From positions 76,490 to 140,489 of IMG/VR virus record IMGVR_UViG_3300036715_001290: 64,000 nucleotides of DNA; one strand, written 5' to 3'. This stretch comes from a virus. The position numbers and the translations under genes are program-made. The notes beneath the pieces were generated by a model that was not told the origin of the DNA, made no database searches, and saw nothing but the letters and a program-made list of their open reading frames with translations. Positions 34,654 through 51,861 of the stretch are shown here, piece after piece (position 1 is the first letter of the stretch; each line of letters begins with the position of its first letter).

Positions 34654-34665
34654 CAACAAAATAGA

Positions 34666-35136
34666 ATGATTATGGAAAAACATATAGATACTACAAAATA
34701 TGAGACATTGGCTCATATGAAAAGAGTTCAGGATTTAATGAACTTATTTGTTTATGAAATTCTTAAAAGAGGTTCTGTACATGATGCAAGTAAATTGCAA
34801 TCACCTGAACTTGAAGGTTTTCATGAAAAAACTGCACAATTAAATGCAATAACTTATGATGGACCTGAATATAGACAATCCTTAAAGGATTTAGAACAAA
34901 CTCTTTTACATCATTATGGACATAATCGACATCATCCTGAACATTTCAGAAATGGTGTATCTGACATGACTTTGATAGATCTTATTGAAATGTTTTGCGA
35001 TTGGAAAGCATCTTCAGAAAGACAAAAGAACGGTAACATCAGGCAAAGTTTAGAAAAGAACACTGATAAATTTAATTTACCGCCATTATTGGTTAAAATA
35101 TTAAATAATACAATTGATATTTTTGATAAAGAATAA
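34666..35136 (+). CDS. HD-like protein (DUF5662-type)
   Basis: HDASKL...HHY..NRHHPEH...EM.CDW. Confidence 0.75.
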   Translation: MIMEKHIDTTKYETLAHMKRVQDLMNLFVYEILKRGSVHDASKLQSPELEGFHEKTAQLNAITYDGPEYRQSLKDLEQTLLHHYGHNRHHPEHFRNGVSDMTLIDLIEMFCDWKASSERQKNGNIRQSLEKNTDKFNLPPLLVKILNNTIDIFDKE

Positions 35137-35270
35137 TTTTAATAATTCTGAATAGGAAAGGATGGACATCATGATTAAGCGTTGGTAGAACCAAGTACAT
35201 GGTCCTTAAGTATAACTTTTAAACATAGTTAACTAAAAAATAATTAATATTAAAAGAAAGAACAAGGATC

Positions 35271-35582
35271 ATGACTGGTAAAATGTTAGAACTAAAAAAC
35301 TTAATTAAATTAAATTCTGAATATAATTCTATTTATAAATTGTATATCAGAAATAAAGCAACAGAAAAACAAGTTGCTAAAATGGATAAGCTAAACGAAA
35401 TAGCTAATTCAACCGAAGGTATGAAAATAATTTTTAACTTAAGATTATATCATATTGCATATGCTTTACTTAAAGGTAGAACATACGAACAAATTGAAAA
35501 TACAGTTAAATTGAATAATCAGTTAACTGCCGACAATTGGAAACGTATTCAAACTATTATAAGTGAGGTAATGAATGGATAA
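35271..35582 (+). CDS. Hypothetical protein
   Basis: 103-aa ORF with an R..HIAY.LLKGRTY.QIE pattern, coupled to the Pth2-like gene. Confidence 0.65.
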   Translation: MTGKMLELKNLIKLNSEYNSIYKLYIRNKATEKQVAKMDKLNEIANSTEGMKIIFNLRLYHIAYALLKGRTYEQIENTVKLNNQLTADNWKRIQTIISEVMNG

Positions 35583-35874
35583 AATGTATATTATTGTACG
35601 TAAAGATTTAGGACCAATCTATAAAATGGTTCAAGGTGCACATGCACTTGCCGCATTTTCATTGGAAAATACGTAGCTTTTTGAAAATTGGAATAATGAA
35701 TATTTGATATTTTTAGATGTTAAAGATAAATATTCATTATTAAAAACAACTGAGATGTTATCTGATAAAGATATTAAGTTCACAATCTTTTATGAGCCTG
35801 ATATTGATGAAGTAACGGCAATTGCTTGTTATACATCAGAAGATACATTCAAAAAATATCAAGTTGCAAAATAA
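35575..35874 (+). CDS. Peptidyl-tRNA hydrolase (Pth2-like) with an internal TAG at codon 34
   Basis: Not in the ORF track. It reads MDKMYIIVRKDLG...VQGAHALAAF...ENT*LFENWNNEYLIFL...FYEPDIDEVTAIAC..., with TAG at 35674-35676. Confidence 0.75.
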
Positions 35875-35879
35875 ATACA

Positions 35880-36007
35880 AACTCTATTGACATTAGTATT
35901 TTAATTGGTTAAATTTATATTAACAAATTTATTTAATACACAATTAAAAACTTTGTAAAAAATTAATTTCAAACTCTATTGACATTAAAACAAATATTGG
36001 TTATATT
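35880..36007 (+). promoter_or_regulatory. Two tandem sigma70-type promoters (-35 at 35887, 35979)
   Basis: AACTCTATTGACA-N17-TA(T/A)ATT. Confidence 0.8.
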
Positions 36008-36237
36008 TATATTATAAAATTGATTGATTAAATCAATTACATCTCGTTGGTGTAAGATGAAGCACGTCTACGATTATGTAGAAGGTAGAGAATTTATTTT
36101 TAAAGTTTATAAAAATTTCTTCGATTCCCTTTGGCGAGGGTGGGAGTATATAATCCGAGTTATATATAGAAGCGGAAGACACGCTGAATGCATGAGCAGA
36201 AGTCAACTAGTTAAATGATCCTCGTTATTTTATTAAT

Positions 36238-36323
36238 GCCAGTACCGCAGAGATGGTGAATTGCGGCGGACTGTAAATCCGTTCATCCAAAAGATGTTGT
36301 AGGTTCGAATCCTTCTGCTGGCA
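36238..36323 (+). tRNA. tRNA-Tyr(GTA)
   Basis: GCGGA-CTGTAAA-TCCGT with a long variable arm. Confidence 0.88.
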
Positions 36324-36337
36324 CAAACATATTTAAT

Positions 36338-36406
36338 GGCACCGACTCAGGGCAAGAGGACTGTCTGTAAAACAGGAACTTGAAGGTTCGAATCCTTCCG
36401 GTGCCA
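36338..36406 (+). tRNA. tRNA(GTA), compact form without a long variable arm
   Basis: CTGT-CTGTAAA-ACAG with a canonical T-arm. Confidence 0.7.
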
Positions 36407-36462
36407 CTCTTAATAAAGATAATGGTATAATGAAATATACATTATATTTATTGATATTACAT

Positions 36463-36536
36463 TGCGGGGTAGAGAAGAGGTCATCTCATTTGGCTCATAA
36501 CCAAAAAATCGCAGGTTCGAATCCTGCTCATCGCAA
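36463..36536 (+). tRNA. tRNA-Met(CAT)
   Basis: TTTGG-CTCATAA-CCAAA. Confidence 0.8.
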
Positions 36537-36541
36537 CAAAT

Positions 36542-36615
36542 GCTGCATTGTTTAGAAGTGGTTTCTATACGGTATCATAAACCGACAAAGATTGGTTCAA
36601 TTCCAATATGCAGTA
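36542..36615 (+). tRNA. tRNA(CAT), Met or Ile2
   Basis: CGGT-ATCATAA-ACCG. Confidence 0.65.
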
Positions 36616-36681
36616 CAATGATTTTTCCACGTCAGAATGGAAACATGTTAATCAAGTCATGTATAAAAATTGATTAATTAT

Positions 36682-36757
36682 GGGCTTAGGAATTGCTAGG
36701 GGTGATTGTCTGATTTGCAATCAGAATATCAGTTGGGTTCGAATCCCAATAGGTCCA
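36682..36757 (+). tRNA. tRNA-Ala(TGC)
   Basis: TCTGA-TTTGCAA-TCAGA with G3:U70. Confidence 0.88.
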
Positions 36758-36763
36758 CAATAT

Positions 36764-36838
36764 GTGCTTAAGGTGTAACGTTTACATACCGTGCGTGGAG
36801 CGCGGAGATGGATGGTTCAATTCCTCCTAAGCACACCA
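36764..36838 (+). tRNA. tRNA(TGG), Pro-like, atypical
   Basis: CCGTG-CGTGGAG-CGCGG; ends in ACCA. Confidence 0.6.
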
Positions 36839-36846
36839 ATTAAAAT

Positions 36847-36922
36847 GGTTCTATGGTATAACGGTTTATTACTCTACCCTGTCACGGTAGAGACCAGGGT
36901 TCGATTCCCCGTAGGACCGCCA
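36847..36922 (+). tRNA. tRNA-Asp(GTC)
   Basis: CTACC-CTGTCAC-GGTAG; ends in GCCA. Confidence 0.9.
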
Positions 36923-36925
36923 TTT

Positions 36926-36999
36926 GGTTTCATAGCTCAATTGGTTAGAGCAATTGACTCATAATCAATAGGTTATAGGTTCAAGTCCTATTGGGACCA
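36926..36999 (+). tRNA. tRNA(CAT), Ile2 or Met
   Basis: ATTGA-CTCATAA-TCAAT. Confidence 0.88.
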
Positions 37000-37012
37000 C
37001 TTAAAAATATAT

Positions 37013-37086
37013 GGGCACATGGTATAGTGGATTAACATTAGGTGGCTGTCAACCACCAGACACGGGTTCGATTCCCGTTGCGCCCG
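37013..37086 (+). tRNA. tRNA-Asp(GTC)
   Basis: GGTGG-CTGTCAA-CCACC. Confidence 0.85.
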
Positions 37087-37100
37087 CTTTTAGAAATTAT

Positions 37101-37347
37101 GGGCCGTTAGTATAACATAAGTATACCCTGCAAGGGCGGGGAGACTCCGGTGTAAAACTCCGGAACGGCCCTCCAATTGATTAAATATCGCGCGGATAGT
37201 TCAACGTAAGAACACTGTTAGGTAATAGCAGTGACTTCGGTCAACTCCGAAACTGCGCGTCAATTAATAATCATGAAATAGGGTAATCCGGTTATCCCGC
37301 TGGGTCTGATTCCCAGAGATTGTGTGGTTCGAATCCCACTTTCATGA
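37101..37347 (+). tRNA. Three atypical tRNA-like genes (37101-37175, 37189-37262, 37272-37347) of unclear identity
   Basis: Acceptor, D and T stems are present, but the anticodon loops are non-canonical. Confidence 0.5.
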
Positions 37348-37358
37348 CAAAATTATAT

Positions 37359-37433
37359 CGCGAGATAGAGCAGTCTGGCAGCTCGCAGGGTTCATAACCC
37401 TGAGGTCGTGTGGTTCAAATCCCACTCTCGCTA
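37359..37433 (+). tRNA. Initiator tRNA-fMet(CAT)
   Basis: C1 mismatch and CAGGG-TTCATAA-CCCTG with three G-C pairs. Confidence 0.88.
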
Positions 37434-37581
37434 CTAACAGGTAAATCATTCCTGTATAATAAATGATTCATTTTTTAATGTTTTTATAAAAACCATTATT
37501 ATATGTATGTAATGTTAACAAACAATATAATGGAAAAAAATGAAACAGTTCAAAAAATAGAAAGATGCTTATAAAGAACAA

Positions 37582-37956
37582 ATGGGAAAACATAACTATA
37601 ACAATGGTATATATTTTTCTGTTGAATCAGGAATATCTAATATAGATGATTTGCCTTTTGCTGTAGGTGAAAACTTATGGATAATTATGGCCGATGGTTT
37701 TTATTTGTATGATTATGAAGAATCAGCTACTGAGTACGGTGTAACATCCGATGGTAGATGGGTTGCTTTATCTGATGGACATTGTTCTTGTTATGGTTGG
37801 GAAGCTTCGGAAGGAGATTGTACTTACTATAAAAATTTGTTAGAATTATTAAAATGTGATAATAATGCGAAAGTAATATTAAAACATAAAGATATTTTAA
37901 TACAAGTTTATCCGTTCTTGAAAAAGTACTTTACTAAAAAAGTATTAGCATGCTAA
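37582..37956 (+). CDS. Hypothetical protein
   Basis: 124-aa ORF containing GHCSCYG. Confidence 0.65.
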   Translation: MGKHNYNNGIYFSVESGISNIDDLPFAVGENLWIIMADGFYLYDYEESATEYGVTSDGRWVALSDGHCSCYGWEASEGDCTYYKNLLELLKCDNNAKVILKHKDILIQVYPFLKKYFTKKVLAC

Positions 37957-37967
37957 TACTTAAATAC

Positions 37968-38038
37968 GCAATCATAGTTTATTGGTAGAATCTCTGGCTC
38001 TCAACCAGAGGAGATGGGATCGTAACCCATTGGTTGCA
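37968..38038 (+). tRNA. tRNA-Glu(CTC)
   Basis: TCTGG-CTCTCAA-CCAGA. Confidence 0.8.
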
Positions 38039-38046
38039 CAAATCAT

Positions 38047-38120
38047 CAGGCTATAGTATATGTGGTGAGTACGCATGACTTTCAATCATGAGTGGTCGGG
38101 TTCGAGTCCCGCTAGCCTGA
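38047..38120 (+). tRNA. tRNA-Glu(TTC)
   Basis: CATGA-CTTTCAA-TCATG. Confidence 0.85.
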
Positions 38121-38258
38121 CAATATGATCATCAACTCGTTTAAGATGACAATCATACCGATAAGTTAACTCTGTCGCTGTATGCACGAGTAAAAGATCT
38201 ATTATATAAACAATTAATACTATCCGTAAACAGTCTGGATGTCTAATATTTTTAATAT

Positions 38259-38332
38259 GCCTGCAAAGTACTGAAGGTAAGTACGCCGCCTCTGTAACGC
38301 GGAACGAGTCAGTTCGATCCTGACTGTGGGCT
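38259..38332 (+). tRNA. tRNA-Thr(TGT)
   Basis: CCGC-C-TCTGTAA-C-GCGG. Confidence 0.7.
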
Positions 38333-38342
38333 CAAAATAAAT

Positions 38343-38417
38343 GCTAATGTAACTCAATTGGATTAGAGTACCGCACTTGTAATGCGGAGGTTAAGAGTTC
38401 GATTCTCTTCATTAGCT
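38343..38417 (+). tRNA. tRNA-Thr(TGT)
   Basis: CCGCA-CTTGTAA-TGCGG. Confidence 0.9.
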
Positions 38418-38436
38418 CAAACATAAAAAGGTTAAA

Positions 38437-38733
38437 ATGAAATCGTTTGATAGAATTGAATTAAGTACTTTAATTGAAAGACATCAATTTCTTTTTAAGG
38501 ATAAAAAACATCATGAATTTTCATTAGGTTTAGCAAAAGATATAATGGATATCTTTAAAGATAATATTTATATTATTGAAAATTGGTTAGAAAATACAAA
38601 TTTAAAGTATCATCCAGAATTGGATATTTTTAAAGATAAATTTGGATATTTAACAACATCTAAAGGTATTGATAATATTCTAAAACATTATTTTTTAGAA
38701 ACTACTGGTTTAACTATTGATGAGATGAAATAA
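38437..38733 (+). CDS. Hypothetical protein
   Basis: 98-aa ORF with AAGG RBS. Confidence 0.6.
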   Translation: MKSFDRIELSTLIERHQFLFKDKKHHEFSLGLAKDIMDIFKDNIYIIENWLENTNLKYHPELDIFKDKFGYLTTSKGIDNILKHYFLETTGLTIDEMK

Positions 38734-38739
38734 AAATAT

Positions 38740-38812
38740 ATCCGTGGAGCTCGACTGGTTGAGCAATTGTCTGATACGCAATAGGTTGTGAGTTCAAATC
38801 TCATCGCGGATA
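38740..38812 (+). tRNA. tRNA-Ile(GAT)
   Basis: ATTGT-CTGATAC-GCAAT. Confidence 0.82.
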
Positions 38813-38818
38813 CTAAAT

Positions 38819-38894
38819 GCCCATATAACCCCCTTCCCTGATATGGAAGATAAAGGTAATGTTGAAAATAAAGGTTCAAGTCCTTTTATGGGTA
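38819..38894 (+). tRNA. Non-canonical tRNA(GAT) lacking a normal D-arm
   Basis: CTTCC-CTGATAT-GGAAG directly after a short linker, with a long region before the T-arm. Confidence 0.6.
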
Positions 38895-38900
38895 CTATAT

Positions 38901-38974
38901 GCTGGGGTAGCATAATCGGTAAATGCATACGGCTTATATCCGTGAGACAGTGTGTTCGAACCACACCTCCAGTA
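38901..38974 (+). tRNA. tRNA-Ile(TAT)
   Basis: TACGG-CTTATAT-CCGTG. Confidence 0.8.
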
Positions 38975-39003
38975 CAAAAAATAGTTATAAAATAAAGATT
39001 CTT

Positions 39004-39782
39004 ATGGAATACACTCAAGAAAAAATTGATGAAATTATCAAAAATATTAACGAAATGAGTCAATATCAAATGGCTTATATATGGAGATTTGCTCCAAGTG
39101 GTAATATATATTTTGATAGTAAGTTACCATTTTTTGAAGTTTTTAATAAACGATTTAATGAACTTGGTGGAATGACACCTGAAATTAGTAAAAGCTTAGG
39201 ATGGAATAAATGAGTGTAACTGTAATTAAACCATGTCCATTTTGTAATAGTACAAACTTACATATGGATTATGAAGGTAATAATTCTAGTGGATTTGATG
39301 AAATTCGATGTAAAGATTGCGGAGCAATTGTAACATTTGGAAAAAAAGGTGACTGTTTCAGAGGTATAGATATTATGCAATGGAATACACGTCCAATTCC
39401 AGTTGCTATTGAATTTGATTTTAATGAAATAATTAAATACTAAGATATTATTATGACAACAAAATATTTAGTAAGAATGTTGGATTATACCAATAAAGAA
39501 AATATTGAAGTATATTTAACACCAACAAAAGAAATACGATTTGATGTAATTGCTGTAACTTTTTATAAAAATGGTGCATATGATGCAAGACCTGCTGATT
39601 ATGATTATCATAATGGTTGGTATGATTATGAACCACCAATTGAGTTAACTGTTGAACAACTTGATTTGGCATTAAAAATTGCAGAATCGGAATTGTTAAA
39701 AGAAATTAAGATAGATGTAAAAAAGAATATTGTTGATGATTTAGTAAAACTAAAAATTGATGATTTAATTTTTTATAAATGA
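39004..39782 (+). CDS. Three small hypothetical ORFs (39004-39213; 39210-39443 Lar-like Zn ribbon; 39453-39782)
   Basis: Coupled ORFs. The second has KPCPFC...C..CG...WNTR, typical of Lar-family Zn ribbons. Confidence 0.6.
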
Positions 39783-39900
39783 TATTAAAAACTGATAGTA
39801 TGGCGGAATAGTAGACGCACTGATAGTATACTATAATAATAAGTAGAACTCGGTTTATTTTTATATAGGTTCATATCCTATTACTATTAAGATTAATGAT

Positions 39901-39980
39901 GCAAGTATGGCGAAATGGTATACGCGGTCCCATATGAGGACTGTCTTACGGCATGTAGGTTCGAGTCCTACTACTTTGCA
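39901..39980 (+). tRNA. Leu-type tRNA body with a non-cognate CATATGA anticodon loop
   Basis: D-arm GGCGAAATGGTATACGC, long variable arm and A73. Confidence 0.55.
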
Positions 39981-40880
39981 CAAATGTTTATATGTTGTAT
40001 CGGTAGCAAACGGGCCGTAACTGGAGCCGGAGATCATGGTTCAATTCCTGATATAAACACTAAGTCCTTATGAACTTCGTAGGCTAAATGTCGATAGTTG
40101 AAATCAGCCTTAAGTTGGAGTTAACAACCAACATGAGCATGTTCAAGTGCATGCTTCCTGAATATAGACAGGACAAATAAATGTCGACTAAGGACTTAAT
40201 TTTAATATGTGGGTATGGTGTAATGGGTAAACATACTGGGCGTTAGCCCGTGAGACGTAGGTTCGAGTCCTGCTATCCTCTGCTTTTTATAAATAACGAG
40301 GCGACAGTACGCGCCTACAATACTAGAAATAGTAAGAGATAAAAAGGTACAAAACATATTTTTTATTTTAATTTAATTATATAGCATAAATGGTAAATGC
40401 ACACAGTCTTAGCATTGTGTAGAGTGGTTCGAGTCCACTATTGTTAGGGATGGCCTGTGTAGGTTCGAGTCCTACTATAATTAAATTATGATATGACTAC
40501 AACAACTGATGGGTAATACTAATATTAATTGGATCATTTTTGCGAATTAATATAATATGTATTTCAATTCAAGAGTAAGCAAATGTGAGGGTTGATGTTG
40601 TAGTTGCTTTTTATGAATGATGATGAGTAACGGAAGAGGGTAGACTCCAATTACATCAATTTAAGTAGATACGCCGATAAACGCTCGTGAGTACGTTACG
40701 CAAGTCGAGCAAAGCCTTAGTCGCACGGATGTAAACCAGCGGTGTTGAAATATACATCTGCATCATTCATAAATAATTAAAATACGCGGGTCGTCTAAAT
40801 TGGCAGTAGGACATTGAACGTTTAGTTCAAAGATCTAAGTTGGATCCTTAGTCTGACGTACATTTTAATTATTAACTAAA

Positions 40881-40909
40881 TTGACATTTGATTTATAAAT
40901 GGTTATATT
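40881..40909 (+). promoter_or_regulatory. Sigma70-type promoter
   Basis: TTGACA-N17-TATATT. Confidence 0.75.
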
Positions 40910-40935
40910 TGTATATAAAAATTAATGGACAATCA

Positions 40936-41358
40936 ATGCAAACATTTCTTCCATATAAATCATTTAACGAATCTGCACAATGTTTAGATTATCGTAGGTT
41001 AGGTAAACAACGTATAGAAGCTAAACAGTTATTACAAATTTTATTAAGTGAAACTGATAAGAAAGGTTGGAGAAATCATCCAGCTTTATTAATGTGGAAA
41101 GGATATGAAAATTCTTTAGCATATTATGGAATGATAATTTGTGAAGAATGGATTCGTAGAGGATATAAAGATAATCAATTAGATTATTTTAAAGAAAGAT
41201 CTAATATTGATAATGTAATATTACCACATTGGTTAGATGACAATTTTACTAAAAGTCATCGCTCAAATTTATTAAGAAAAGATAAAGAATTTTATTCTAA
41301 ATATGGTTGGGATGTTCCTGATGATTTGGAATACATTTGGCCTACAAAAATAAAATAA
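40936..41358 (+). CDS. Pyrimidine-dimer DNA glycosylase-like protein (DenV/MSMEG_6728 type)
   Basis: MQTFLPY, LD.RRLGKQR.E, W.NHPA..MW.G, SHRSNLLRKD and Y.WP. Confidence 0.85.
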   Translation: MQTFLPYKSFNESAQCLDYRRLGKQRIEAKQLLQILLSETDKKGWRNHPALLMWKGYENSLAYYGMIICEEWIRRGYKDNQLDYFKERSNIDNVILPHWLDDNFTKSHRSNLLRKDKEFYSKYGWDVPDDLEYIWPTKIK

Positions 41359-41365
41359 GGTTACT

Positions 41366-41743
41366 ATGAAAAAGTTTCTATATGTAAAGGCAGATACCAA
41401 TGATACCAATGATGCCGATTATGTTACTAGTTTGAATGAAATAGCAGATGAAGATATAAAACTAATGCAGCCTTTATTTGAGGCAATTAAAAGATTTGAA
41501 CTATATGTTGGAAATATAAGAAATTATTCACCCGGGAATCCTTGGACCCATTCTAATAACTTTCCAACAAATGAATGTTGCAGAAAAGATTTAGGTGAAA
41601 AATATGCATCTGAATTATATGCCGATTATAAGGAAGCATTTGAATTGTTTGATGAAGATTATGTTCCCAGTTCTGAATATGGTATACATACTATTGAAGA
41701 AATAAAAGTTTTTGAAGTTGAAAATGTAAGAATATTAGTATAA
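41366..41743 (+). CDS. Hypothetical protein
   Basis: 125-aa ORF, DTNDADY...YGIHTI. Confidence 0.65.
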   Translation: MKKFLYVKADTNDTNDADYVTSLNEIADEDIKLMQPLFEAIKRFELYVGNIRNYSPGNPWTHSNNFPTNECCRKDLGEKYASELYADYKEAFELFDEDYVPSSEYGIHTIEEIKVFEVENVRILV

Positions 41744-41772
41744 CCTAATTCTTCGTTATATTTATATTAAAT

Positions 41773-41857
41773 GCTGATATGGTTGTAATGGTAAACACGG
41801 AGGACTTAAAATCCTCTGGACTTAATGTCCGTAGGGGTTCGAGTCCCCTTATCAGTA
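41773..41857 (+). tRNA. tRNA-Leu(TAA)
   Basis: GAGGA-CTTAAAA-TCCTC with a long variable arm. Confidence 0.88.
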
Positions 41858-41863
41858 CAAAAT

Positions 41864-41947
41864 GGGCGGGTGGCGTAATTGGCAGCCGCATCAGACTTAA
41901 GATCTGATATCCGTAAGGGTGTGAGGGTTCGAGTCCCTCCTCGTCTA
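41864..41947 (+). tRNA. tRNA-Leu(TAA)
   Basis: TCAGA-CTTAAGA-TCTGA. Confidence 0.9.
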
Positions 41948-42056
41948 CTAATATTGTTAGGTGTTACGATAAATAGCATAACTGTTGGCTCATAACATGA
42001 GGTGATGGTAGGAACGGTTCGACTCCGTAGCAATATGAAATTAATAAAGGTTATGT

Positions 42057-42455
42057 ATGAAAACATTAGAACAACTTAAAGAAGAGTATACTAAAAGATT
42101 AATAGTTCCTATTGAAGGGTCTACTAATATTCAATTAGTTACTAAAAGTGGTTTTCCATTTTGTCCTGCTGGTTATAATAGAATTGTAATTGGTGAACGT
42201 GGACCTTATGTTGAGTTTGAAGATGTTTATATGCATAGTGTACATATTCCTGAAGACCAAGAATATAGAACAAATTGTACCTTTAGTAAAGTTTATTATA
42301 TTGAACATCGTACTATTGATGAATCAAATGTAAAAATATATGAGCAATTAAGAACTGTAAATTATGCAGATTATTTAATTGGTAAATTTTACGTATCACC
42401 ATTTGATTTGAAAATTATGGATGGGCCCAATCTTATTGAGTCTATTAAAAAATAA
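42057..42455 (+). CDS. Conserved phage hypothetical protein
   Basis: GYNRIVIGERGPYVEF...IYEQ.RTV.YADY. Confidence 0.7.
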   Translation: MKTLEQLKEEYTKRLIVPIEGSTNIQLVTKSGFPFCPAGYNRIVIGERGPYVEFEDVYMHSVHIPEDQEYRTNCTFSKVYYIEHRTIDESNVKIYEQLRTVNYADYLIGKFYVSPFDLKIMDGPNLIESIKK

Positions 42456-42555
42456 TGTTAGATTATAATAAACTTGATGTTGAATTTTCAAAAGAATTAA
42501 ATAAATGGAGTTATATAAAATTAACTTTATGGATTTTGTTCGATAAATTAAGAAT

Positions 42556-42628
42556 GCTAATGTAGTTGTAATTGGTAAAACGAGTCCTTGGTAAGGATTA
42601 GTAAACGGATCGTAACCGTTCTTTAGCT
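42556..42628 (+). tRNA. tRNA-Thr(GGT)
   Basis: AGTCC-TTGGTAA-GGATT. Confidence 0.78.
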
Positions 42629-42643
42629 CAAAAAAATACATAT

Positions 42644-42717
42644 GCCGAGGTAAGTTAATTGGATAGACGATTAGAATGTGAATCTAATCAGTATGCGTTC
42701 GAACCGCGTCCTCGGTA
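42644..42717 (+). tRNA. tRNA(GTG), His
   Basis: TTAGA-ATGTGAA-TCTAA; lacks an encoded G-1/C73. Confidence 0.7.
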
Positions 42718-42726
42718 CTAAAACAT

Positions 42727-42798
42727 TACTCTATCGTATAATGGTTATTACGCCGTCCTTTGAAGTCGGTTATTATAGTTCGAATCTATATAGAGTAG
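42727..42798 (+). tRNA. tRNA-Gln(TTG)
   Basis: CCGTC-CTTTGAA-GTCGG with U1:A72 and G73. Confidence 0.82.
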
Positions 42799-42804
42799 CA
42801 AAAT

Positions 42805-42888
42805 GCATCTATGGTGTAATAGGTAAACACGATAGTCTAAGAAGCTATTGGGAGCAATCCCGTAAGAGTTCGAGTCTCTTTAGGTGTA
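42805..42888 (+). tRNA. tRNA-Leu(AAG)
   Basis: ATAGT-CTAAGAA-GCTAT with a long variable arm. Confidence 0.85.
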
Positions 42889-42890
42889 CT

Positions 42891-43100
42891 AAATATTTAT
42901 ATGACATGTCGCTGATAATATTTATCAGAGGAACTTTGGGCATATAAAGGATATGTAGGAGATATAGAATCGTTTGTACTACAAGACGTGTATGAAACAT
43001 CAAATGATGAGTTAGCAATCCTTTAACATATCATCAGGTAAGATGGATTAGAAAAATGACATGTTGAAATAACGGAACTCTAAGTATAGTATAAATATTT
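42891..43100 (+). ncRNA. rnpB: Minimal RNase P RNA
   Basis: P1 terminal helix; P2 GACATGTC/GACATGTT; P3 hairpin; CR-I GAGGAACTTTGGG and CR-V AACGGAACTCTAAGTA forming P4; P15 loop with GGT; J18/2-like TAGAAAAATGAC. Confidence 0.75.
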
Positions 43101-43108
43101 AATCTTAG

Positions 43109-43137
43109 TTGACATTTGATATAATAATGGTTATATT
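43109..43137 (+). promoter_or_regulatory. Sigma70-type promoter
   Basis: TTGACA-N17-TATATT. Confidence 0.75.
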
Positions 43138-43156
43138 TGAATATCAATTATTTAAT

Positions 43157-43229
43157 GCGGTAGTAATTCAATTGGTAGAATACCACATTGCCAATGTGGA
43201 GGTTGTCGGTTCGAGACCGGTTTACCGCA
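43157..43229 (+). tRNA. tRNA-Gly(GCC)
   Basis: CCACA-TTGCCAA-TGTGG. Confidence 0.88.
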
Positions 43230-43315
43230 CAACATTAAAGGAAAATATTATGAAGAAACTTTTAGTAAAAGGTATATTTTTTCAGTAAGGTAAAACTAAC
43301 TAAGGAAAAATATAT

Positions 43316-43753
43316 ATGAAGAAAATCAATAAAAAAAATCCAGTAACTGTATGTATTGAATCAAATAATACATACCCAAGATTAATTACTGCAAAATTCA
43401 TTTCATATTCAGATGTTGTATCATTCTTTGTAAAAAGAGGTTATACAAAAGCAAATATTGAAAGATGGATTAAAGATTATAAAAATTCTCATAAATTTTA
43501 TGAGTATAATAAATATGATAAACAAAGTTTTAATGAACAAGCTAAAGTTGTAATTAAAGCTAATTCTCAATGGTATGGTTACAATAGCATATTTATAGAA
43601 GATCCAATTAAAATTGTTGATTCATTTGGTACTAAGATTAATTTTTATTCAACAGTACTAAATGATATAACTAAAAGATCATCTATTGAAAAGGATACTC
43701 AACCTTTTTATGACATGTATCGTGTTAGAGTACGATATTGTAAGAATCGTTAA
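43316..43753 (+). CDS. Hypothetical protein
   Basis: 145-aa ORF. Confidence 0.6.
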   Translation: MKKINKKNPVTVCIESNNTYPRLITAKFISYSDVVSFFVKRGYTKANIERWIKDYKNSHKFYEYNKYDKQSFNEQAKVVIKANSQWYGYNSIFIEDPIKIVDSFGTKINFYSTVLNDITKRSSIEKDTQPFYDMYRVRVRYCKNR

Positions 43754-43773
43754 TATTTATATTATGGATATTT

Positions 43774-43859
43774 GGAAGATCCCATGTGGTGCGGTACTCG
43801 GTCCTGAAAACCGTTAGGACGTTAATAGCGTTGTAAGAGTTCGAATCTCTTATCTTCCT
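43774..43859 (+). tRNA. tRNA-Ser(TGA)
   Basis: CGGT-CCTGAAA-ACCG with a long variable arm. Confidence 0.78.
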
Positions 43860-43866
43860 CTAAAAT

Positions 43867-43951
43867 GCTGGTGTGGTTGTAATGGTAAACACATACGCCT
43901 TAGAAGCGTAGGGGTGATCTGCCCGTGAGAGTTCGAGTCTCTCCATCAGTA
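43867..43951 (+). tRNA. tRNA-Leu(TAG)
   Basis: TACGC-CTTAGAA-GCGTA. Confidence 0.88.
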
Positions 43952-43959
43952 CAAAATAT

Positions 43960-44031
43960 GTGCGTTAAGCTGAAGTGGATAGGTATAGGTCTGCAAAACC
44001 TATGTAGTTGGTTCGAGTCCAACAATGCACT
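43960..44031 (+). tRNA. tRNA-Cys(GCA)
   Basis: TAGGT-CTGCAAA-ACCTA with U73. Confidence 0.88.
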
Positions 44032-44039
44032 CAAAATAT

Positions 44040-44112
44040 GCCCGTGTAGTTCAATGGCTCAGAATGTTAGGTCTACACCCTAATGATAACAGTTCGACTC
44101 TGTTCGCGGGTA
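44040..44112 (+). tRNA. tRNA-Val(TAC)
   Basis: TTAGG-TCTACAC-CCTAA. Confidence 0.82.
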
Positions 44113-44118
44113 CTACAT

Positions 44119-44191
44119 CCCAGTATCGTATAACGGCTTATTATATTGCGCTTCCAACGCAAGGACGTGGTTTCGATTACCACTACTGGGT
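44119..44191 (+). tRNA. tRNA-Gly(TCC)
   Basis: TTGCG-CTTCCAA-CGCAA with U73. Confidence 0.85.
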
Positions 44192-44226
44192 CAAATAAAT
44201 AGTTATTAAATAAAACAAACTAACCT

Positions 44227-44787
44227 ATGAATAAAAGATTAATAATATCAAGATATAATGAAAATTTAGATTGGCTTGATAGAATTAATTTTGATTATCT
44301 TGTTTATAATAAAGGTGAAAATATAAATCTACCATATATTAGATTGGAAAATATAGGTAGAGAAACTGATACATATTTAAGATTTATTATAGAACATTAC
44401 AATAACTTACCAAATTATTTAATATTATGTCAAGGAAATCCATTTACACATCATAGAGATTTTGTAAATGTTGTTAATGAATTTAGTCATAATGATAATT
44501 CCGTTGTTTATTTAAGTGAACATATTGTTAATGATGAACCATATAATCATAATCCTGAAAATGGTGATATAAGATGTGATAAATTATTAGACATACTTAA
44601 CATTCCATATTCTAAAAATAATCTTTTATTTCCAGCAGGAGCTCAATTTATAATACCTAAAGATAAAATAACAAATAAAACTATTGAATTTTGGAAAGAA
44701 TGTTTAAGAGTATGTAATACATATTCTATAATGCCTTGGGTATTTGAAAGAGTATTTCCTATAATATTTGAGTATAATAATGTTTGA
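44227..44787 (+). CDS. DUF3431-type protein (glycosyltransferase-associated)
   Basis: SRYNENLDW, N.GRE..TYL.FI..HY, QGNPF.H, GAQF and PW.FER. Confidence 0.8.
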   Translation: MNKRLIISRYNENLDWLDRINFDYLVYNKGENINLPYIRLENIGRETDTYLRFIIEHYNNLPNYLILCQGNPFTHHRDFVNVVNEFSHNDNSVVYLSEHIVNDEPYNHNPENGDIRCDKLLDILNIPYSKNNLLFPAGAQFIIPKDKITNKTIEFWKECLRVCNTYSIMPWVFERVFPIIFEYNNV

Positions 44788-45889
44788 ATATGATTATCTT
44801 ATTGTAGGTGCAGGACTTTATGGTTCTGTATGTGCAAGAGAATTAACAAATCTAGGATATAAATGTTTAGTTATTGATAAACGTGATCATATTGGTGGCA
44901 ATTGTTATACTTATAAATCAGATGATATTTATGTACATAAATATGGTCCACATATATTTCATACTAATGATATTAGTATTTGGAATTATGTAAATAGATT
45001 CATATCATTTAACAATTTTACTTTAAGAACAAAGGTTAACTATAAGGATAGAATTTATTCATTTCCAATTAATTTAATGTCAATATATCAAATATATGGA
45101 ATTAATAATCCATCAGATGCTATTGAAAAAATTAATGAAGTAAAAATACATAATGATCATCCTGATAATTTAGAAGAATATATTTTATCTCAAGTTGGTA
45201 AAGATCTCTATGAAATTTATATTAAAGGTTATAGTACAAAACAATGGGGAAGATCCCCTAAGGATTTACCTGCAAGTATAGTTAAAAGATTACCAATACG
45301 TTATAATTTTGATGATAGATATTTTGATGACAAATATCAAGGTATACCAATTAATGGTTATACGGAATTGTTTGAATGTTTACTTAATGATATCAGAGTA
45401 ATATTAAATGTAGATTATGATATAGAACATAATCATTTTGATTTATTAGCAAGAAATATAATCTACACTGGACCTATTGATAGATATTATAATTATTGTT
45501 ATGGTGAATTAGAATATAGAACATTAAGATTTGAAAATGAATATCATAATGTTAATGATTATCAAGGTACGGCATTAATTAACTATACTGATGTAAATGT
45601 TCCATATACTAGGATAATAGAACATAAACATTTTATGTTGAATAAATCTATTCATCAAGAAAATCATACTATTATTACTAAAGAATATCCTAAGATTTTT
45701 GAAAAGGAAGATATTCCTTATTATCCAATACCTGATAGTAAAAATAATAAATTATATAATATGTATTTATTAAAATCAAAAGGAAATTCAAATTTATCAT
45801 TTGGTGGTAGAATAGGTGAATATAAATATTATGATATGCATCAGGTTATTGCTTCAGCATTGTCATTCGTAAAGGATATTAGAAAATGA
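44780..45889 (+). CDS. glf: UDP-galactopyranose mutase
   Basis: VGAGL.G, HIGGNCY, HKYGPHIFHT, YQGIP..GY, TRIIEHKHF, PYYP and GR.GEYKYYDM. Confidence 0.95.
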   Translation: MFEYDYLIVGAGLYGSVCARELTNLGYKCLVIDKRDHIGGNCYTYKSDDIYVHKYGPHIFHTNDISIWNYVNRFISFNNFTLRTKVNYKDRIYSFPINLMSIYQIYGINNPSDAIEKINEVKIHNDHPDNLEEYILSQVGKDLYEIYIKGYSTKQWGRSPKDLPASIVKRLPIRYNFDDRYFDDKYQGIPINGYTELFECLLNDIRVILNVDYDIEHNHFDLLARNIIYTGPIDRYYNYCYGELEYRTLRFENEYHNVNDYQGTALINYTDVNVPYTRIIEHKHFMLNKSIHQENHTIITKEYPKIFEKEDIPYYPIPDSKNNKLYNMYLLKSKGNSNLSFGGRIGEYKYYDMHQVIASALSFVKDIRK

Positions 45890-47129
45890 ATATATTAGTT
45901 ATAGGTGTTTTAAGTATACTAATTTATTTTATGATTAGAACAATATTTTGGATATTAATGGCAGTAATGATATCTTATAATTCTAAGGGTAGTAAAACTA
46001 CAATTCAATTTTTATGGTATGATTTTTGGCGCGGTGCTTTCTTTGATAAAAATAACAAAATAATTTACATATGTCCAATTTCAACATGGGTCTTTAAAAT
46101 AGAAATGGAACCAAAATGATAGATGGAATAGGTGATGCATTTGGTAATTTTATAGGTGGATTGGTTACTTTATGTATTATATTTGTACCATTAGGTATAT
46201 GGAAATTTGTTGAAATAATTATATGGCTTTTTACTCATGTTAAAATTAGTTGGTAAAAAATGAAAAATCCAATAAGACCTGAAAAAGTAATACTAACATT
46301 TATAGTTAGGGATATCTCTCCTTTATTATTTTTGAACGATCTTCCAGTAAAAAGAACAATTCAATTAGAATTAACCGAAGAACAATTAAAAAAATTAAAT
46401 CTAAGATGGGTTGGTTTTGATGGTGGTAAAGATGTTTATGAATCACTTGCCGAAGTATTTATGGAAAATATTGAAATGAAATTTACCGAGGTAAATAAAT
46501 GAAAGATGACACTGTTGAATATCCACAAAATATACTTAAAGAAGAAAAAGCAATAGTGAATCAAATCTTTAAAGATGATACTGTTATTTATAATGAGTAT
46601 GATCCAATAGTTTTAAGCGACAGCACGGCAATTCAAATAAAAATATTTACTAATAAATATAGAGTTGGTGATATAGAATTAATTGAAAATGATAGTGCCG
46701 ATGAACTTAGATTTAATCGTTGGGATTTAGCCGCTATTAGATTAATAGACCAACTTGATGGTAATTATAATAGATTATTTTTAACCGCTTTGAAACGAGA
46801 GATTCAAAAAAGATTGGATGATATGAATGGTTGAATTAATTAATAAACATACTAATGAACATATAGTTTTACCAACACCCGATAATAAAATATGTAAGAT
46901 ACTTATTAAAGATAATACGGCTACACCTATTGATTGGAGTAGTGTAGAATTACCTAAAGTAAATTATACTAATAAATTAATATCCGATAATTTGGTATCA
47001 TTACGACCCATGACATATTATAAAGGTAAAGCTTTCCACTTGAATTATAAATATGGATTCTGGGGTAGGTTAAGATGGTTACTTAATAAAATTAAAATTA
47101 TTTTTACAAAAAAGATTAACAAAAAGTAG
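45886..47129 (+). CDS. Run of small hypothetical ORFs (45886-46119, 46260-46502, 46499-46834, 46827-47129)
   Basis: Coupled ORFs; the first is hydrophobic. Confidence 0.55.
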
Positions 47130-47160
47130 TATAAAACAAATACTTGATATATTTATAAAC

Positions 47161-47235
47161 ATGAAAACAAATAAATTCAATCCCAGTAATAAACGCAACT
47201 TTAGCAATCCAAGATGGAATCCTGCTGTGACGTAA
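47161..47235 (+). CDS. Putative leader (attenuator) peptide MKTNKFNPSNKRNFSNPRWNPAVT
   Basis: 24-codon ORF immediately after an ATATTTATA element and 25 nt before a strong terminator. Confidence 0.6.
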   Translation: MKTNKFNPSNKRNFSNPRWNPAVT

Positions 47236-47260
47236 CTATGTACTTTCAATTTATTTGAAG

Positions 47261-47301
47261 AAGCTGCTAAATACGTCATGGAATTATTTAGCAGCTTTTT
47301 T
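47261..47301 (+). terminator. Rho-independent terminator (candidate attenuator)
   Basis: 13-bp stem AAGCTGCTAAATA/TATTTAGCAGCTT followed by a T-tract. Confidence 0.85.
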
Positions 47302-47437
47302 AGTTTTTGTTTTATGTTCTTTATAAATGCATCAATAATTGGTCTATGGTTTATATCAGTCTAATAGGTTAAACACTTGCTAGCATCATCTAAAGCATCA
47401 ATTTTATGCAAATAACACTTATTTTGGGTTATTTATT

Positions 47438-47802
47438 AACTCTATTGACATTTTGATTAAAATTGGTTATATTTATATTATAAAATTTAACAATCAATTG
47501 GATTAAAAATAGATAAAATTATTTATTAACTCTATTGACATTTGAATAAAAAATAGTTAAATTTGTATTATAAATTTTAATTGAGAATATGAAAAATAAA
47601 GAAGAATTAATTGAATTGGCAAACACACCTGTTAAAAAATTAACAGAAGATGAAGCTAAAAAATTGTTAGTTTATTTATATGATAAATTAAATGATTTAG
47701 GAGATGATGATTTTTTTGGTACTGAAGGTTGGAAACATTTTTTTGGATTAGAAAAATAAATTTTATAACTCTATTGACAATTAAATAAAAAATGGTTAAA
47801 TT
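47438..47802 (+). promoter_or_regulatory. Three tandem sigma70-type promoters (-35 at 47445, 47535, 47774)
   Basis: AACTCTATTGACA-N17-TA(T/A)ATTT. Confidence 0.8.
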
Positions 47803-47947
47803 TGTATTATAAATAATTGATAATGAAAACAAAATATTAAAATTTTACAAATATAAAAACGGCAGTCGGTAGGAAAGTCCATATTTAGTATGGTACGTAC
47901 CGTGAGTGATATGAGGATAGAAGGCGAGCCTCAATATTTGTATATAT

Positions 47948-48020
47948 GCATCCACATGAACCAAGGCTGGCGATCTGGTCTCCAAAACCGGATGGAAGAG
48001 TTCGATTCTCTTTGGGTGTG
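47948..48020 (+). tRNA. tRNA-Trp(CCA)
   Basis: CTGGT-CTCCAAA-ACCGG with G73. Confidence 0.8.
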
Positions 48021-48221
48021 CTAATGATTAGATATATGATTCTATAACTTTTTGAAAGATTGGAGGTTGGTCAAATATTTTAATTCATAATAAATCCGAC
48101 AGGTTGATTCCCTGTAGTTGTCTGCTCATAATCAGACTGACCGACTCAAGAAAGGTTATAGGATTAAGAATTAATAGATATATTTGAAAAGAATTTAAGT
48201 AGCTAAAATTATTTTTTATAT

Positions 48222-48296
48222 CGGTATGTGGGCCAATGGCTAGGCCACTCCGTTTGGGGCGGAGGCATCGTGTAGGTTCGAGTCCTATCATACCGA
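48222..48296 (+). tRNA. tRNA-Pro(TGG)
   Basis: CTCCG-TTTGGGG-CGGAG with C1:G72 and A73. Confidence 0.9.
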
Positions 48297-48510
48297 CAAC
48301 ATCACTGGTCAGATACATCTGAATAAAACGTGTAGGGACTATAAGCTATAAGTATGCATTGATGCTTATAAGAACAGCCTTGCTTTAGAGTTAAATGAAA
48401 TATGTTAACCCAGTGGCCGTTTAATATAACTCGGTAGCTTAATGTAAAGCTGCAGGTCGTCAAGAGCTGCGTTGTGAGGTCAAAACTTTCCCGGGTTGCT
48501 AAATTTATAT

Positions 48511-48576
48511 GCCGCGGTAGCTCAATGTAGAGCGCCAGTCGACTGGTGGTTGTGAGGTCAAAACTCACCTGCGGCG
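48511..48576 (+). ncRNA. tRNA-like RNA with a truncated anticodon arm
   Basis: Normal acceptor and D arms; the anticodon arm is reduced to CCAG-TCGA-CTGG. Confidence 0.55.
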
Positions 48577-48690
48577 CAAATTTTAATTGTATTAGTGGTA
48601 GAAGAATGCAAACTCAGCGCTTCTAACGTTGATGTCGACTTAAGAGTAAAGTTTCATGTACATTGATAATACAATTAATTATTTTTACAT

Positions 48691-48765
48691 TCATTGGTAG
48701 CTCAATGGTAGAGCGCCGCGCTGTTAACGCGGATGTTGGGGGTTCGAGTCCCTCCCTCTGAGCCA
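48691..48765 (+). tRNA. tRNA-Asn(GTT)
   Basis: CCGCG-CTGTTAA-CGCGG; ends in GCCA. Confidence 0.88.
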
Positions 48766-48768
48766 TAT

Positions 48769-48844
48769 TCCTGATTAGCAATCGTGGTGAATTGCGACAA
48801 GCTGTTAACTTGTATAGAGACTGGTTCGACTCCAGTATTAGGAG
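48769..48844 (+). tRNA. tRNA-Asn(GTT)
   Basis: ACAAG-CTGTTAA-CTTGT. Confidence 0.85.
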
Positions 48845-49008
48845 CAAAGTAAATATAAAGTGGGATCTTTTGAAGATTCATTATGATACTTAACAGGTTC
48901 GAATCCTGTCTATGAGGTTATGCCTCAGAGAGTGGCAAGCGGTGGAGAAATCGATGCTATTTATTTATATATGTATATAATCCGGTTTTGTATACATATA
49001 GATATTAT

Positions 49009-49081
49009 CTGCGTATGGGCCAATTGGCAGGCTACCTGATTTGGATTCAGGGGTGTGGGGGTTCAAGTCCCTCTATGCAGA
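49009..49081 (+). tRNA. tRNA-Pro(TGG)
   Basis: CCTGA-TTTGGAT-TCAGG. Confidence 0.85.
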
Positions 49082-49305
49082 CTAAGTTTCTATTCGGAGC
49101 AATGACAATAGTTTAACCCTATTGAGATTAAGTAGAAATCGTTCATTGTGAAGATATATTGATGTTAAGTACTCTGTTGCCGTATAATGAAATTTGCAAA
49201 AATCGTTATACAATAAAGAAAGTATACCGTTGAGGAGAACATATTAGTATACGCTTAACAAATTTATGTTAATAAACTACAAATTAACTAGAAATATTTT
49301 TTTAT

Positions 49306-49380
49306 GGGTTCGTAGCAAAAATGGACAAATGCAGCTGGCTTTTAACCAGTAAAGTCCGAGTTCGACTCTCGGCGGGCCCA
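49306..49380 (+). tRNA. tRNA-Lys(TTT)
   Basis: GCTGG-CTTTTAA-CCAGT. Confidence 0.88.
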
Positions 49381-49535
49381 CTGCGGTTTTTTGGTGTAGA
49401 TAAAAGGCATACCAACGCTTATGTTGGAGGCAAAATCGCTTTGTTTTGATAATTAATATGTAGCTCTGAAACTTCGGGAAATCCTGCGCGTAGGACATTG
49501 TCTTGAGTACCGAGTATTAGTTATTGTTTTTATAT

Positions 49536-49608
49536 TGGCATGTACGAATCATGGTGAAACGGAGTGGCTGTTACCCACTTGAGGAAAGTTCGATCCTTTC
49601 CATGCCAG
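49536..49608 (+). tRNA. tRNA-Asn(GTT)
   Basis: AGTGG-CTGTTAC-CCACT with G73. Confidence 0.78.
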
Positions 49609-49931
49609 CTTTGAAATTTGTATGTAGTTTAACGGCAGAATACGGGCGGGAAGCCTGAGACCTGAGTTCGAATCTCAGCATACTAATACTAGACCGAAGA
49701 ATGTATTATACCTTCAGAAAGTATAAATGCATTAAAGATTACTTTTCCTAACAGGCCTGAATAACCTGAGATGGTATGGATTATAAAGTTATGCCGGACA
49801 TTGCAGCGTCGGTAAATAATATAATTCATCCGGAGGTTACCGTACAAAGGTGAGTAATTTAATTAAATAAAGACCCTGAATCTTTATTTCAGTAGTAAGT
49901 TGCAACTTACCTTCGGTTTATGATTTTTAAT

Positions 49932-50017
49932 GGAAGATTGCTAGAGTGGTAATAGGCCAGTTTGCTAAACTGTGACGGCGGTGAAACGCTGCATCCGTTC
50001 AAATCGGATATCTTCCT
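49932..50017 (+). tRNA. tRNA-Ser(GCT)
   Basis: CAGT-TTGCTAA-ACTG with a long variable arm. Confidence 0.85.
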
Positions 50018-50042
50018 CAACTAATAATTTTATAAAAGACTA

Positions 50043-50727
50043 ATGAATACTATAAAATGTCAGATATGTAAATCGGATTATAGATTACTTTTTGATGATA
50101 GCATACAAGGTGACGATTGTGCATGCTTCTTTAATAAAGATATGATATATGGAGCTTTTGGTACATCACTATATGATTTTATGGAATTTAAAGTATTAGA
50201 TTATAAGATATTGAATAATTTAATAATCAATGCTCCTATATGTGATAATTGTATGACTTCATTATTAGAAAATAAACAAATTAAATGTACATATAAATTA
50301 TACTGATAGGATATTATATGTCAATGAGTGATTGCCCTGAATGTTGGGATAATATTTGTACATGTGGTCATAAATATCAACATATGGATGTTGATGAATT
50401 AAAAGATCTAATAAAAGTATTACAAAAAATTGTTAAAAATAAAACAAAAAAGATTCCTTGGAATCCATTATTAACTCAAGATATAAATGAAATTATTTCA
50501 AAAAATAAAAAAATTACTTGGGTATACTTTAAGGATAAAAACAAATGGTAAATCTTTCAGATTATGAATGGAATTATGAATGTCCAATTTGTAATTCAAA
50601 ATTCAGGCCATGTAAATGTGGTATGATGAAACCTGAAAAGGTTGATGAAGAAATACAAAAGTTTGCAGATGAATTAAAGAAACTTATAATAGATTCAAAA
50701 TTTGAATGTTATCATAAATTAAAATGA
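50043..50727 (+). CDS. Three small Cys-rich hypothetical ORFs (50043-50306, 50318-50551, 50545-50727)
   Basis: Each contains CxxC motifs. Confidence 0.6.
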
Positions 50728-50732
50728 AATTT

Positions 50733-50805
50733 GGGAAGTGAACTAGTGTGGTCATAGTGGTCGCCTGAAGAGCGAAGAAAATCAGTTCGATTCTGGTACT
50801 TCCCA
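50733..50805 (+). tRNA. tRNA-Phe(GAA)
   Basis: TCGC-CTGAAGA-GCGA. Confidence 0.82.
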
Positions 50806-50810
50806 CAAAC

Positions 50811-50883
50811 GCATCGGTAGCTCAATGGTTAGAGTGCCGCACTCCTAAGGCGGGAGATATGAGTTCGACTCTCATTCGGTGTT
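50811..50883 (+). tRNA. tRNA-Arg(CCT)
   Basis: CCGC-A-CTCCTAA-G-GCGG. Confidence 0.82.
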
Positions 50884-50890
50884 CAAATAT

Positions 50891-50964: not shown

Positions 50965-50981
50965 CAAATAAAAGGTTATTT

Positions 50982-51855: not shown

Positions 51856-51861
51856 CAAAAT

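Follow-up and report, generated by a model that had tools for sequence, protein, structure and literature searches.

Introduction

RNase P RNA, by which newly made tRNAs are processed, belongs to the small number of ribozymes that are universal. In bacterial RNase P, as follows from work on the E. coli and T. maritima enzymes, the adenines of J5/15 and the GGU of L15 contact the substrate, and the bacterial-type enzyme prefers a U at position -1 and a C at position 74, by means of the A248/N-1 and G292-G293/CCA contacts. A strong reduction of the RNA has been described for the archaeal type T (Pyrobaculum; RF02357), in which nearly the whole S-domain is gone and which is reported as active in PMC7191817 and PMC4919922, the former citing Lai et al. 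2010 for the catalytic activity of the S-domain-less RNA. Reduction alone is, therefore, no argument against activity. Minimal types are placed only in archaea in a paper on the metagenomic annotation of rnpB, in which phages are unmentioned, and RNase P is unmentioned in two large surveys of huge and jumbo phages. A description of a phage-encoded RNase P RNA was not met in a search of the full-text literature, beyond the reach of which many subscription papers lie.

The present analysis concerns a 210-nt RNA encoded in the tRNA array of a T4-like phage, which we read, with a probability of roughly 0.7, as a miniature, phage-encoded form of RNase P RNA that descends from bacterial type A, its predicted activity being included in this estimate. 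The homology of the candidate to RNase P RNA is practically certain, and it belongs, as a new and divergent member, to a variant of this RNA in phages that is apparently undescribed.

Phage and Genomic Setting

The window, by which the whole 64,000-nt stretch of DNA analysed here is meant, comprises the final 64 kb of a 140,489-bp IMG/VR virus record that is about 70% complete; it has a GC content of about 27% and carries every ORF of at least 200 aa on the plus strand. The phage is T4-like and AT-rich, with a DNA polymerase of the T4-type family B whose best named relative is that of Microcystis phage Mel-JY01 (39% identity), and it also codes for ribonucleotide reductase, RNA ligases and polynucleotide kinase. 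About 40 tRNA genes, a tmRNA and a suppressor tRNA(CUA) were found in the window by Rfam and the tRNA gene search.

The candidate RNA gene (42891-43100, plus strand, as are all features given below unless marked otherwise) exists in a single copy in the 140-kb record and sits within the tRNA array, between tRNA-Leu(AAG) at 42805-42889, which ends 1 nt before it, and tRNA-Gly(GCC) at 43157-43230. The first base of the RNA lies 2 nt past C74 of the tRNA-Leu. Between the RNA and tRNA-Gly, a near-consensus sigma-70-like promoter site, TTGACA-17-TATATT, is located at 43109-43137; being a consensus match only, in a region where the count of promoter-like sites is not above that of shuffles, it suggests that the candidate RNA may end one transcription unit. 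For the adjacent 145-aa ORF, a search for relatives returned none.

The tRNAs of the array (window 33093-51948) carry C at position 74 after the discriminator in all 38 cases, and their trailers read C(A/U)A; the full CCA is encoded by only three of them (36847-36922, 48691-48765 and 51862-51948) in this genome of 27% GC. The base at -1 is T (U) in 35 of the 38 tRNA genes.

Several other features of the region were recorded in passing. The tmRNA of the phage, at window 55231-55590, matches the full Rfam model with 59.6 bits and is not listed by ARAGORN. The suppressor tRNA with anticodon CUA is accompanied by tRNA-like genes whose anticodon loops are unusual or that contain an insertion (window 34583-34654, 39793-39890 and 40373-40483 for this set), one of which matches the Rfam tRNA model over 109 nt. 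A group of genes for the repair and modification of tRNA adjoins the array (window 52140-53195, 54238-55011, 55989-56921 and 57538-58596), its members being an RNA ligase with an HNH module, a tRNA methyltransferase-like protein, a polynucleotide kinase and a second RNA ligase. The gene glf for UDP-galactopyranose mutase lies within the tRNA region (window 44768-45889) and copies with 58-60% identity to it occur in many unrelated viral contigs.

Secondary Structure of the Candidate RNA

The helices were read from the sequence, the gene being delimited by the 5' and 3' ends of P1, and positions inside the RNA are counted from 42891 as 1. P1 is formed by 42891-42902 (1-12) with 43089-43100 (199-210) and has 12 bp. 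P2, of 8 bp, is formed by GACAUGUC at 42903-42910 (13-20) with GACAUGUU at 43058-43065 (168-175), two of its pairs differing from those of the related RNAs considered below (the family) with both sides changed, namely C-G to A-U and A-U to G-C. The P3 hairpin occupies 42912-42928 (22-28 with 32-38), with 7 bp and the loop UAU.

CR-I (GAGGAA) and the 5' strand of P4, ACU(U)UGGG with the bulged U at 42936, are located at 42928-42940, i.e., in GAGGAACUUUGGG at 38-50; GAGGAA and the bulged U are family-invariant columns, and P4 covaries in the family. The partner strand is UCUAAGU at 189-195, by which seven pairs are made around the bulged U46: A43-U195, C44-G194 and U45-A193 before it, and U47-A192, G48-U191, G49-C190 and G50-U189 after it. 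This P4 stands in the register of the family, one pair shorter than the family P4, and equally in that of the Rfam type A consensus (GAGGAAAGUCCGG / ACAGAACCCGGCUUA), anchored on the 5' GGAA and the 3' GAAC, with three pairs before the bulged U. It differs from the bacterial consensus at what we take to be the equivalents of A67 (to C), G68 and C70 (to U) in the E. coli numbering, each partner compensating. The 3' strand of P4 follows CR-V (ACGGAAC) at 43072-43085 (182-195), in which a single base departs from the family (A to G at 43074), so that ACGGAA stands in the candidate where all ten relatives have ACAGAA.

P5 pairs 42941-42945 (51-55) with 42990-42994 (100-104) in the covariance-model (CM) alignment, all five pairs being standard. 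It is followed by AAAGGAU at 42946-42952 (56-62), which pairs over 7 bp with AUCCUUU at 43018-43024 (128-134) in the P16/17 loop, a topology that is that of the type A P6 pseudoknot. A Watson-Crick run of a different sequence occurs at the same site in every family member, and in the family-wide test the summed run length was 58 versus 34.3 +/- 3.2 in shuffled sequences, none of the 2000 shuffles reaching 58.

The full specificity domain (P7-P14 with CR-II and CR-III) is absent, with only 37 nt between P6 and the 3' strand of P5 (42953-42989, 63-99). The stem of this stub, 42954-42958 with 42979-42983 (64-68 with 89-93), covaries in the family and encloses GAG, a mini hairpin and CGUUUGUA; the 12-nt block CGUUUGUACUAC of the stub is identical in L260, L297 and L300. 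The strands of the stub may be the remnants of CR-II and CR-III.

The J5/15 adenines are located at 42995-42997, of which the family-invariant AA is kept at 42996-42997. P15, L15 and P16 (42998-43045) were placed by the CM alignment and are nested: P15 pairs CAUC (42998-43001, 108-111) with GAUG (43042-43045, 152-155), and P16 pairs 43006-43010 (116-120) with 43031-43035 (141-145). Both helices covary in the alignment of the family with the candidate. The internal loop L15 is AAAU / AGGUAA, with GGU at 43037-43039. CR-IV (J18/2), UAGAAAAAUG at 43049-43058, comes directly after P15, within UAGAAAAAUGAC at 159-170; all of its family-invariant positions are matched, and it agrees with the Rfam consensus CuAGAugAAUG. 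Only 3 nt separate the 3' strand of P15 from the UAGA of CR-IV, and P18 is, therefore, absent, as it is in most family members. Thus, P18 and nearly all of the specificity domain are lost from this RNA. CR-I GAGGAA, CR-IV UAGAAAAAUG and CR-V ACGGAAC...UA occur in the RNase P order, with all family-invariant motif positions but one matched.

An initial fold, with a long P7-like stem, two local CAUC/GAUG hairpins and a CGU...ACG hairpin, was dropped, as the family alignment shows P5, P6 and the nested P15/P16; likewise, AAAGGAU (56-62) with AUCCUUU (128-134) was rejected as a stem of the S-domain, since it joins the strand that follows P5 to the P16/17 loop as the P6 pseudoknot. Most of what the first-pass annotation had drawn is preserved in the final structure: P1, P2 and P3 lie where it had put them, with 12, 8 and 7 bp, the P4 that it had called rewritten by compensatory changes with the bulged U retained is in register with both the family and bacteria, its P15 (CATC/GATG) with the AAAT...AGGTAA loop is borne out by the family alignment, GGU being invariant, its J18/2-like motif coincides with CR-IV at 159-170, and the loss of P18 that it had noted agrees with the 3 nt from P15 to CR-IV. 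It was right that the S-domain is strongly reduced but not in the size of about 60 nt, which comes to about 37 nt (63-99) since AAAGGAU/AUCCUUU belongs to P6.

A Family of Small RNase P RNAs

The relatives were gathered in phage and metagenome contigs by pattern scans built from the core motifs; the first such scan had given a single match, which was a chance one in a coding region. Small RNAs in tRNA arrays were obtained from the contigs L182, L260/L261, L263 and L264, from the metagenomic contigs L271, L272, L282, L294, L295 and L291, and from L297/L298 and L299/L300, the position inside a tRNA array being confirmed for L260, L295, L264, L182 and L271. A 385-kb phage-like contig (L086) carries an RNA with 86 bits on RF00010, adjoining tRNAs and a GOLLD RNA, and a 463-kb contig (L139) carries another RNase P RNA. 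Rfam detects only some of the family: L291 reaches 105 bits on RF00010, above the threshold, L182 61.8 bits (E 2e-16), L264 46.8 bits on RF00373 (E 4e-10) and L294 25.7 bits on RF00011, and the other six of the ten members gave no RNase P match in Rfam at E<=0.01. The family thus grades from recognisable RNase P RNAs to forms that are missed by Rfam.

The alignment A2 comprises ten distinct relatives, with the candidate left out, and the covariance model R1 was built from it. RNAalifold applied to A2 alone predicts the bulged P4, P15, P16 and the S-domain stem, with many two-sided changes. In the search of the window on both strands with the filters off, R1 matched 42903-43087 over its full length (model positions 1-188) with 60.3 bits (E 1.3e-14), the next best match in the 64 kb having 10.8 bits. 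The model is not confined to the small RNAs. It scores ordinary bacterial RNase P RNAs at 30-52 bits, among them those of type A (the gammaproteobacterial L118, 44.7 bits; L119, 30.7 bits), gives 40-44 bits to the type B-like RNAs L278, L293, L275 and L287 (about 43-44 for the first two), and also detects the RNAs of the big phages L086 (56.8 bits) and L139. Since full-size bacterial type A and type B-like RNAs are detected, R1 is a model of RNase P and not merely of a clade. With the filters off, the best score of R1 on the T4 array RNAs rnaC and rnaD was 4.3 bits.

The alignment A4, which comprises the family and the candidate, was used for the structure of P2 (treated as a pseudoknot), P4, P5, the S stem, P15 and P16. 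Of its cells, 94.5% pair versus 69.0% in shuffled alignments, two-sided changes occur in 24 of the 30 pairs, and the covariation score is 0.659 versus at most 0.103 with the partners slid by 1-3 columns, counts that lean towards the R1 structure, to which A4 was fitted, although P2, which is outside the model, still pairs. In the family, six of the eight pairs of P4 covary. The candidate, which is 47-54% identical to the family members, agrees with the ten relatives in 44 of the 50 columns that do not vary among them, including GAGGAA, the bulged U, the J5/15 AA, the L15 GGU, CR-IV and, with one base off, CR-V. Four of the six mismatches make up the two compensatory pairs of P2, one is a linker base, and one is the A to G of CR-V at 43074.

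Among the contigs gathered, a mini RNase P RNA in L269 (5216-5757, minus strand) is seemingly split by an insertion of about 235 nt, giving two R1 matches; the sequence before its 3' half is without a matching CR-I/P4 5' strand, and the locus may hold an intron or mobile element. The 2.5-kb viral contig L084 ends inside a reduced RNase P RNA (1-159, minus strand) with 43 bits on RF00010, in which 179 model positions are replaced by 11 nt and P18 is kept, with a GUAA loop. GOLLD RNAs lie within a few kb of phage RNase P RNAs on three unrelated contigs, all in tRNA arrays: L086:5070-5488(-), L264:10629-11095(-) and L182:1003-1462(+). No GOLLD RNA was found in the window analysed here.

Standard Searches and Distribution

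The Rfam scan at the gathering thresholds gave no RNase P match for the candidate, the gathering score of RF00010 (100 bits) not being reached. At E<=10, the 601-nt slice 42700-43300 likewise gave no RNase P match, including none to the archaeal type T (RF02357), and only tRNA and chance-level matches were obtained; an RF00010 search across the whole record was also empty. Consequently, the gene is missed entirely by standard annotation. A sequence-only profile of the family (nhmmer) found nothing when the whole window was searched and reached 14.3 bits when a 290-nt slice was used, and the support for the candidate is, therefore, largely structural. The 3' motif pair TAGANNAATGA...ACRGAAC is found at a single site in the window and was absent from all 100 shuffled sequences, which, together with the E-value of 1.3e-14 from the independent family model, excludes chance.

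The view of the first-pass annotation that a strongly reduced RNase P RNA of bacterial type is encoded here and is missed by the standard models has thus held up, with 60.3 bits (E 1.3e-14) in R1, with type A features, and with no Rfam RNase P match even at E<=10. Covariance-model support, which it had named as the check on its reading, is divided in that the Rfam models fail and R1 from the ten relatives supports the RNA strongly. Its description as one of the smallest such RNAs is fair against the sizes found in this analysis, namely 176-227 nt (from P2 to P4) in the family and 311-339 nt in the full-size RNAs of the same alignment. Its further proposal, that the atypical tRNAs of the phage are the substrates, is speculative.

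A close relative of the candidate was not found in blastn, in the pattern scans, or in the searches by neighbour genes and DNA polymerase relatives. Blastn of the candidate against GenBank phages gave short chance matches only, and that of two family members gave no match. No family member occurs in the 23 contigs that are nearest by DNA polymerase (identity at most 44%; mostly fragments, one complete), in the cultured phages Mel-JY01, VS1 and S-SRM01, or at 80 glf loci. A mini-specific pattern, which is a narrow test, returned only full-size RNase P RNAs (322-339 nt) from 185,579 prokaryote species genomes. The protein gene rnpA was not found (Pfam PF00825) in the 140-kb record, itself about 70% complete.

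Predicted Function and Alternative Explanations

The catalytic-domain scaffold is intact, comprising P1-P5, P6, P15-L15-P16, CR-I, CR-IV and CR-V, the bulged U, the J5/15 AA and the L15 GGU, and the positions that contact the substrate, i.e., the J5/15 adenines and the L15 GGU, are kept in the candidate. A catalytic function is probable. The tRNA genes around the RNA are consistent with the preferences of the bacterial-type enzyme, given the U at -1 in 35 of 38 and the C74 in all 38. The RNA would be co-transcribed with the upstream tRNAs (a tRNA at 42556-42628, then those for His, Gln and Leu), and the excision of tRNA-Leu would free it; it would then fold and bind the RnpA protein of the host, which is proposed as the partner because no rnpA was found in the record. 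The ribozyme so assembled may trim the 5' leaders of the about 40 pre-tRNAs of the phage and of its pre-tmRNA, with the substrates recognised mainly by the acceptor end (U at -1 with J5/15, and C74 with the L15 GGU) rather than by the tRNA elbow. In this manner, the phage would have its own supply of ribozyme while flooding the cell with tRNA precursors.

The same features may be explained by a non-cutting mimic of RNase P, a folded dead copy that soaks up host RnpA or pre-tRNAs and redirects or throttles the host tRNA maturation. Such a role would suit a P4 that has one pair fewer and deviates in several places from the bacterial consensus, an RNA for which any protein partner would be host-derived, given that no rnpA was found in the record, and the fact that conservation is highest in CR-IV and CR-V, the regions that bind the protein. 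However, the positions in contact with the substrate rather than the protein (L15 GGU, J5/15 AA and the bulged U) are likewise kept in both the family and the candidate; all changes of P4 are compensatory, which argues that the geometry of the active-site helix is under selection, and the RNA is located among its presumed substrates. We regard the mimic as unlikely. Less probable still is a decaying relic, i.e., a captured rnpB fragment free of selection: although P18 and most of the S-domain are lost, the GC content is only 33%, the identity to the relatives is 47-54% and the nearest phages by DNA polymerase lack a family member, decay would hardly leave all of the about ten helices intact in a genome of 27% GC, two of them via two-sided changes, nor retain 44 of the 50 invariant positions, and RNAs reduced in the same manner are present on many contigs that are unrelated.

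An unrelated structured RNA of phage tRNA arrays, tRNA-like or Y-RNA-like, that bears the landmarks of RNase P by chance is scarcely credible in view of the full-length match to R1 (E 1.3e-14), a model by which bacterial RNase P RNAs are also detected, of the absence of the core motif pair from 100 shuffles, and of the scores of at most 4.3 bits given by R1 to T4 rnaC and rnaD; in its favour is that the Rfam models of RNase P find no match. A miniature RNase P RNA that is probably active remains the preferred reading. We lean, with less assurance, towards the wider proposal that large phages may carry a working RNase P ribozyme that is devoid of the tRNA-elbow reader, uses host RnpA and matures their own, partly non-standard, tRNAs independently of the host rnpB RNA.

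If the reading of the candidate as an active ribozyme is true, a catalytic RNase P RNA would for the first time be known from a virus, and it would also be a naturally occurring minimal ribozyme of the bacterial type. A natural bacterial-type enzyme of about 200 nt without the S-domain or P18 would set the working minimum of the catalytic domain. The rewritten P4 would amount to a natural mutagenesis experiment on the active-site helix, and this AT-rich copy would show how far an active P4 can be rewritten. The question of how large phages with big tRNA sets escape the RNA processing of the host is also touched by this reading.

Comparison with Known RNAs

The T4 RNAs rnaC and rnaD (species 1 and 2) resemble the candidate in being small stable RNAs beside the tRNA genes of a T4-type phage, but they have no likeness to the RNase P model (at most 4.3 bits). 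The archaeal type T is similar in the kind of reduction, the S-domain being nearly lost; however, both its descent and the proteins with which it works are archaeal, whereas P6 and the L15 GGU, which mark the bacterial type A, are retained in the candidate. With the small RNase P RNAs of tRNA arrays (L260, L295, L271, L272, L263, L264, L282, L294, L182, L291, L297 and L300), the candidate shares the reduced architecture, the setting in an array and the S-domain stub, and among them it is the most divergent (60 bits in R1 versus 101-159) and the most AT-rich (33% GC versus 37-54%), with a P4 that is one pair shorter and a G for A in CR-V at 43074.

From the bacterial type A RNase P RNA (rnpB, the M1 RNA of E. 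coli; RF00010), the candidate differs in its length (210 nt versus 311-339 nt in the bacterial examples aligned), in the lack of P18, in the cutting of P7-P14 to a 37-nt stub, in a P4 made from other base pairs, in being encoded by a phage, and in a score below every Rfam reporting threshold. It has in common with this type the succession P1-P2-P3 (12, 8 and 7 bp), the P4 pseudoknot with the bulged U three pairs from the 5' A, P5, the P6 pseudoknot that is a mark of type A, the AA of J5/15, P15-L15(GGU)-P16, and the regions CR-I, CR-IV and CR-V in the same order and register.
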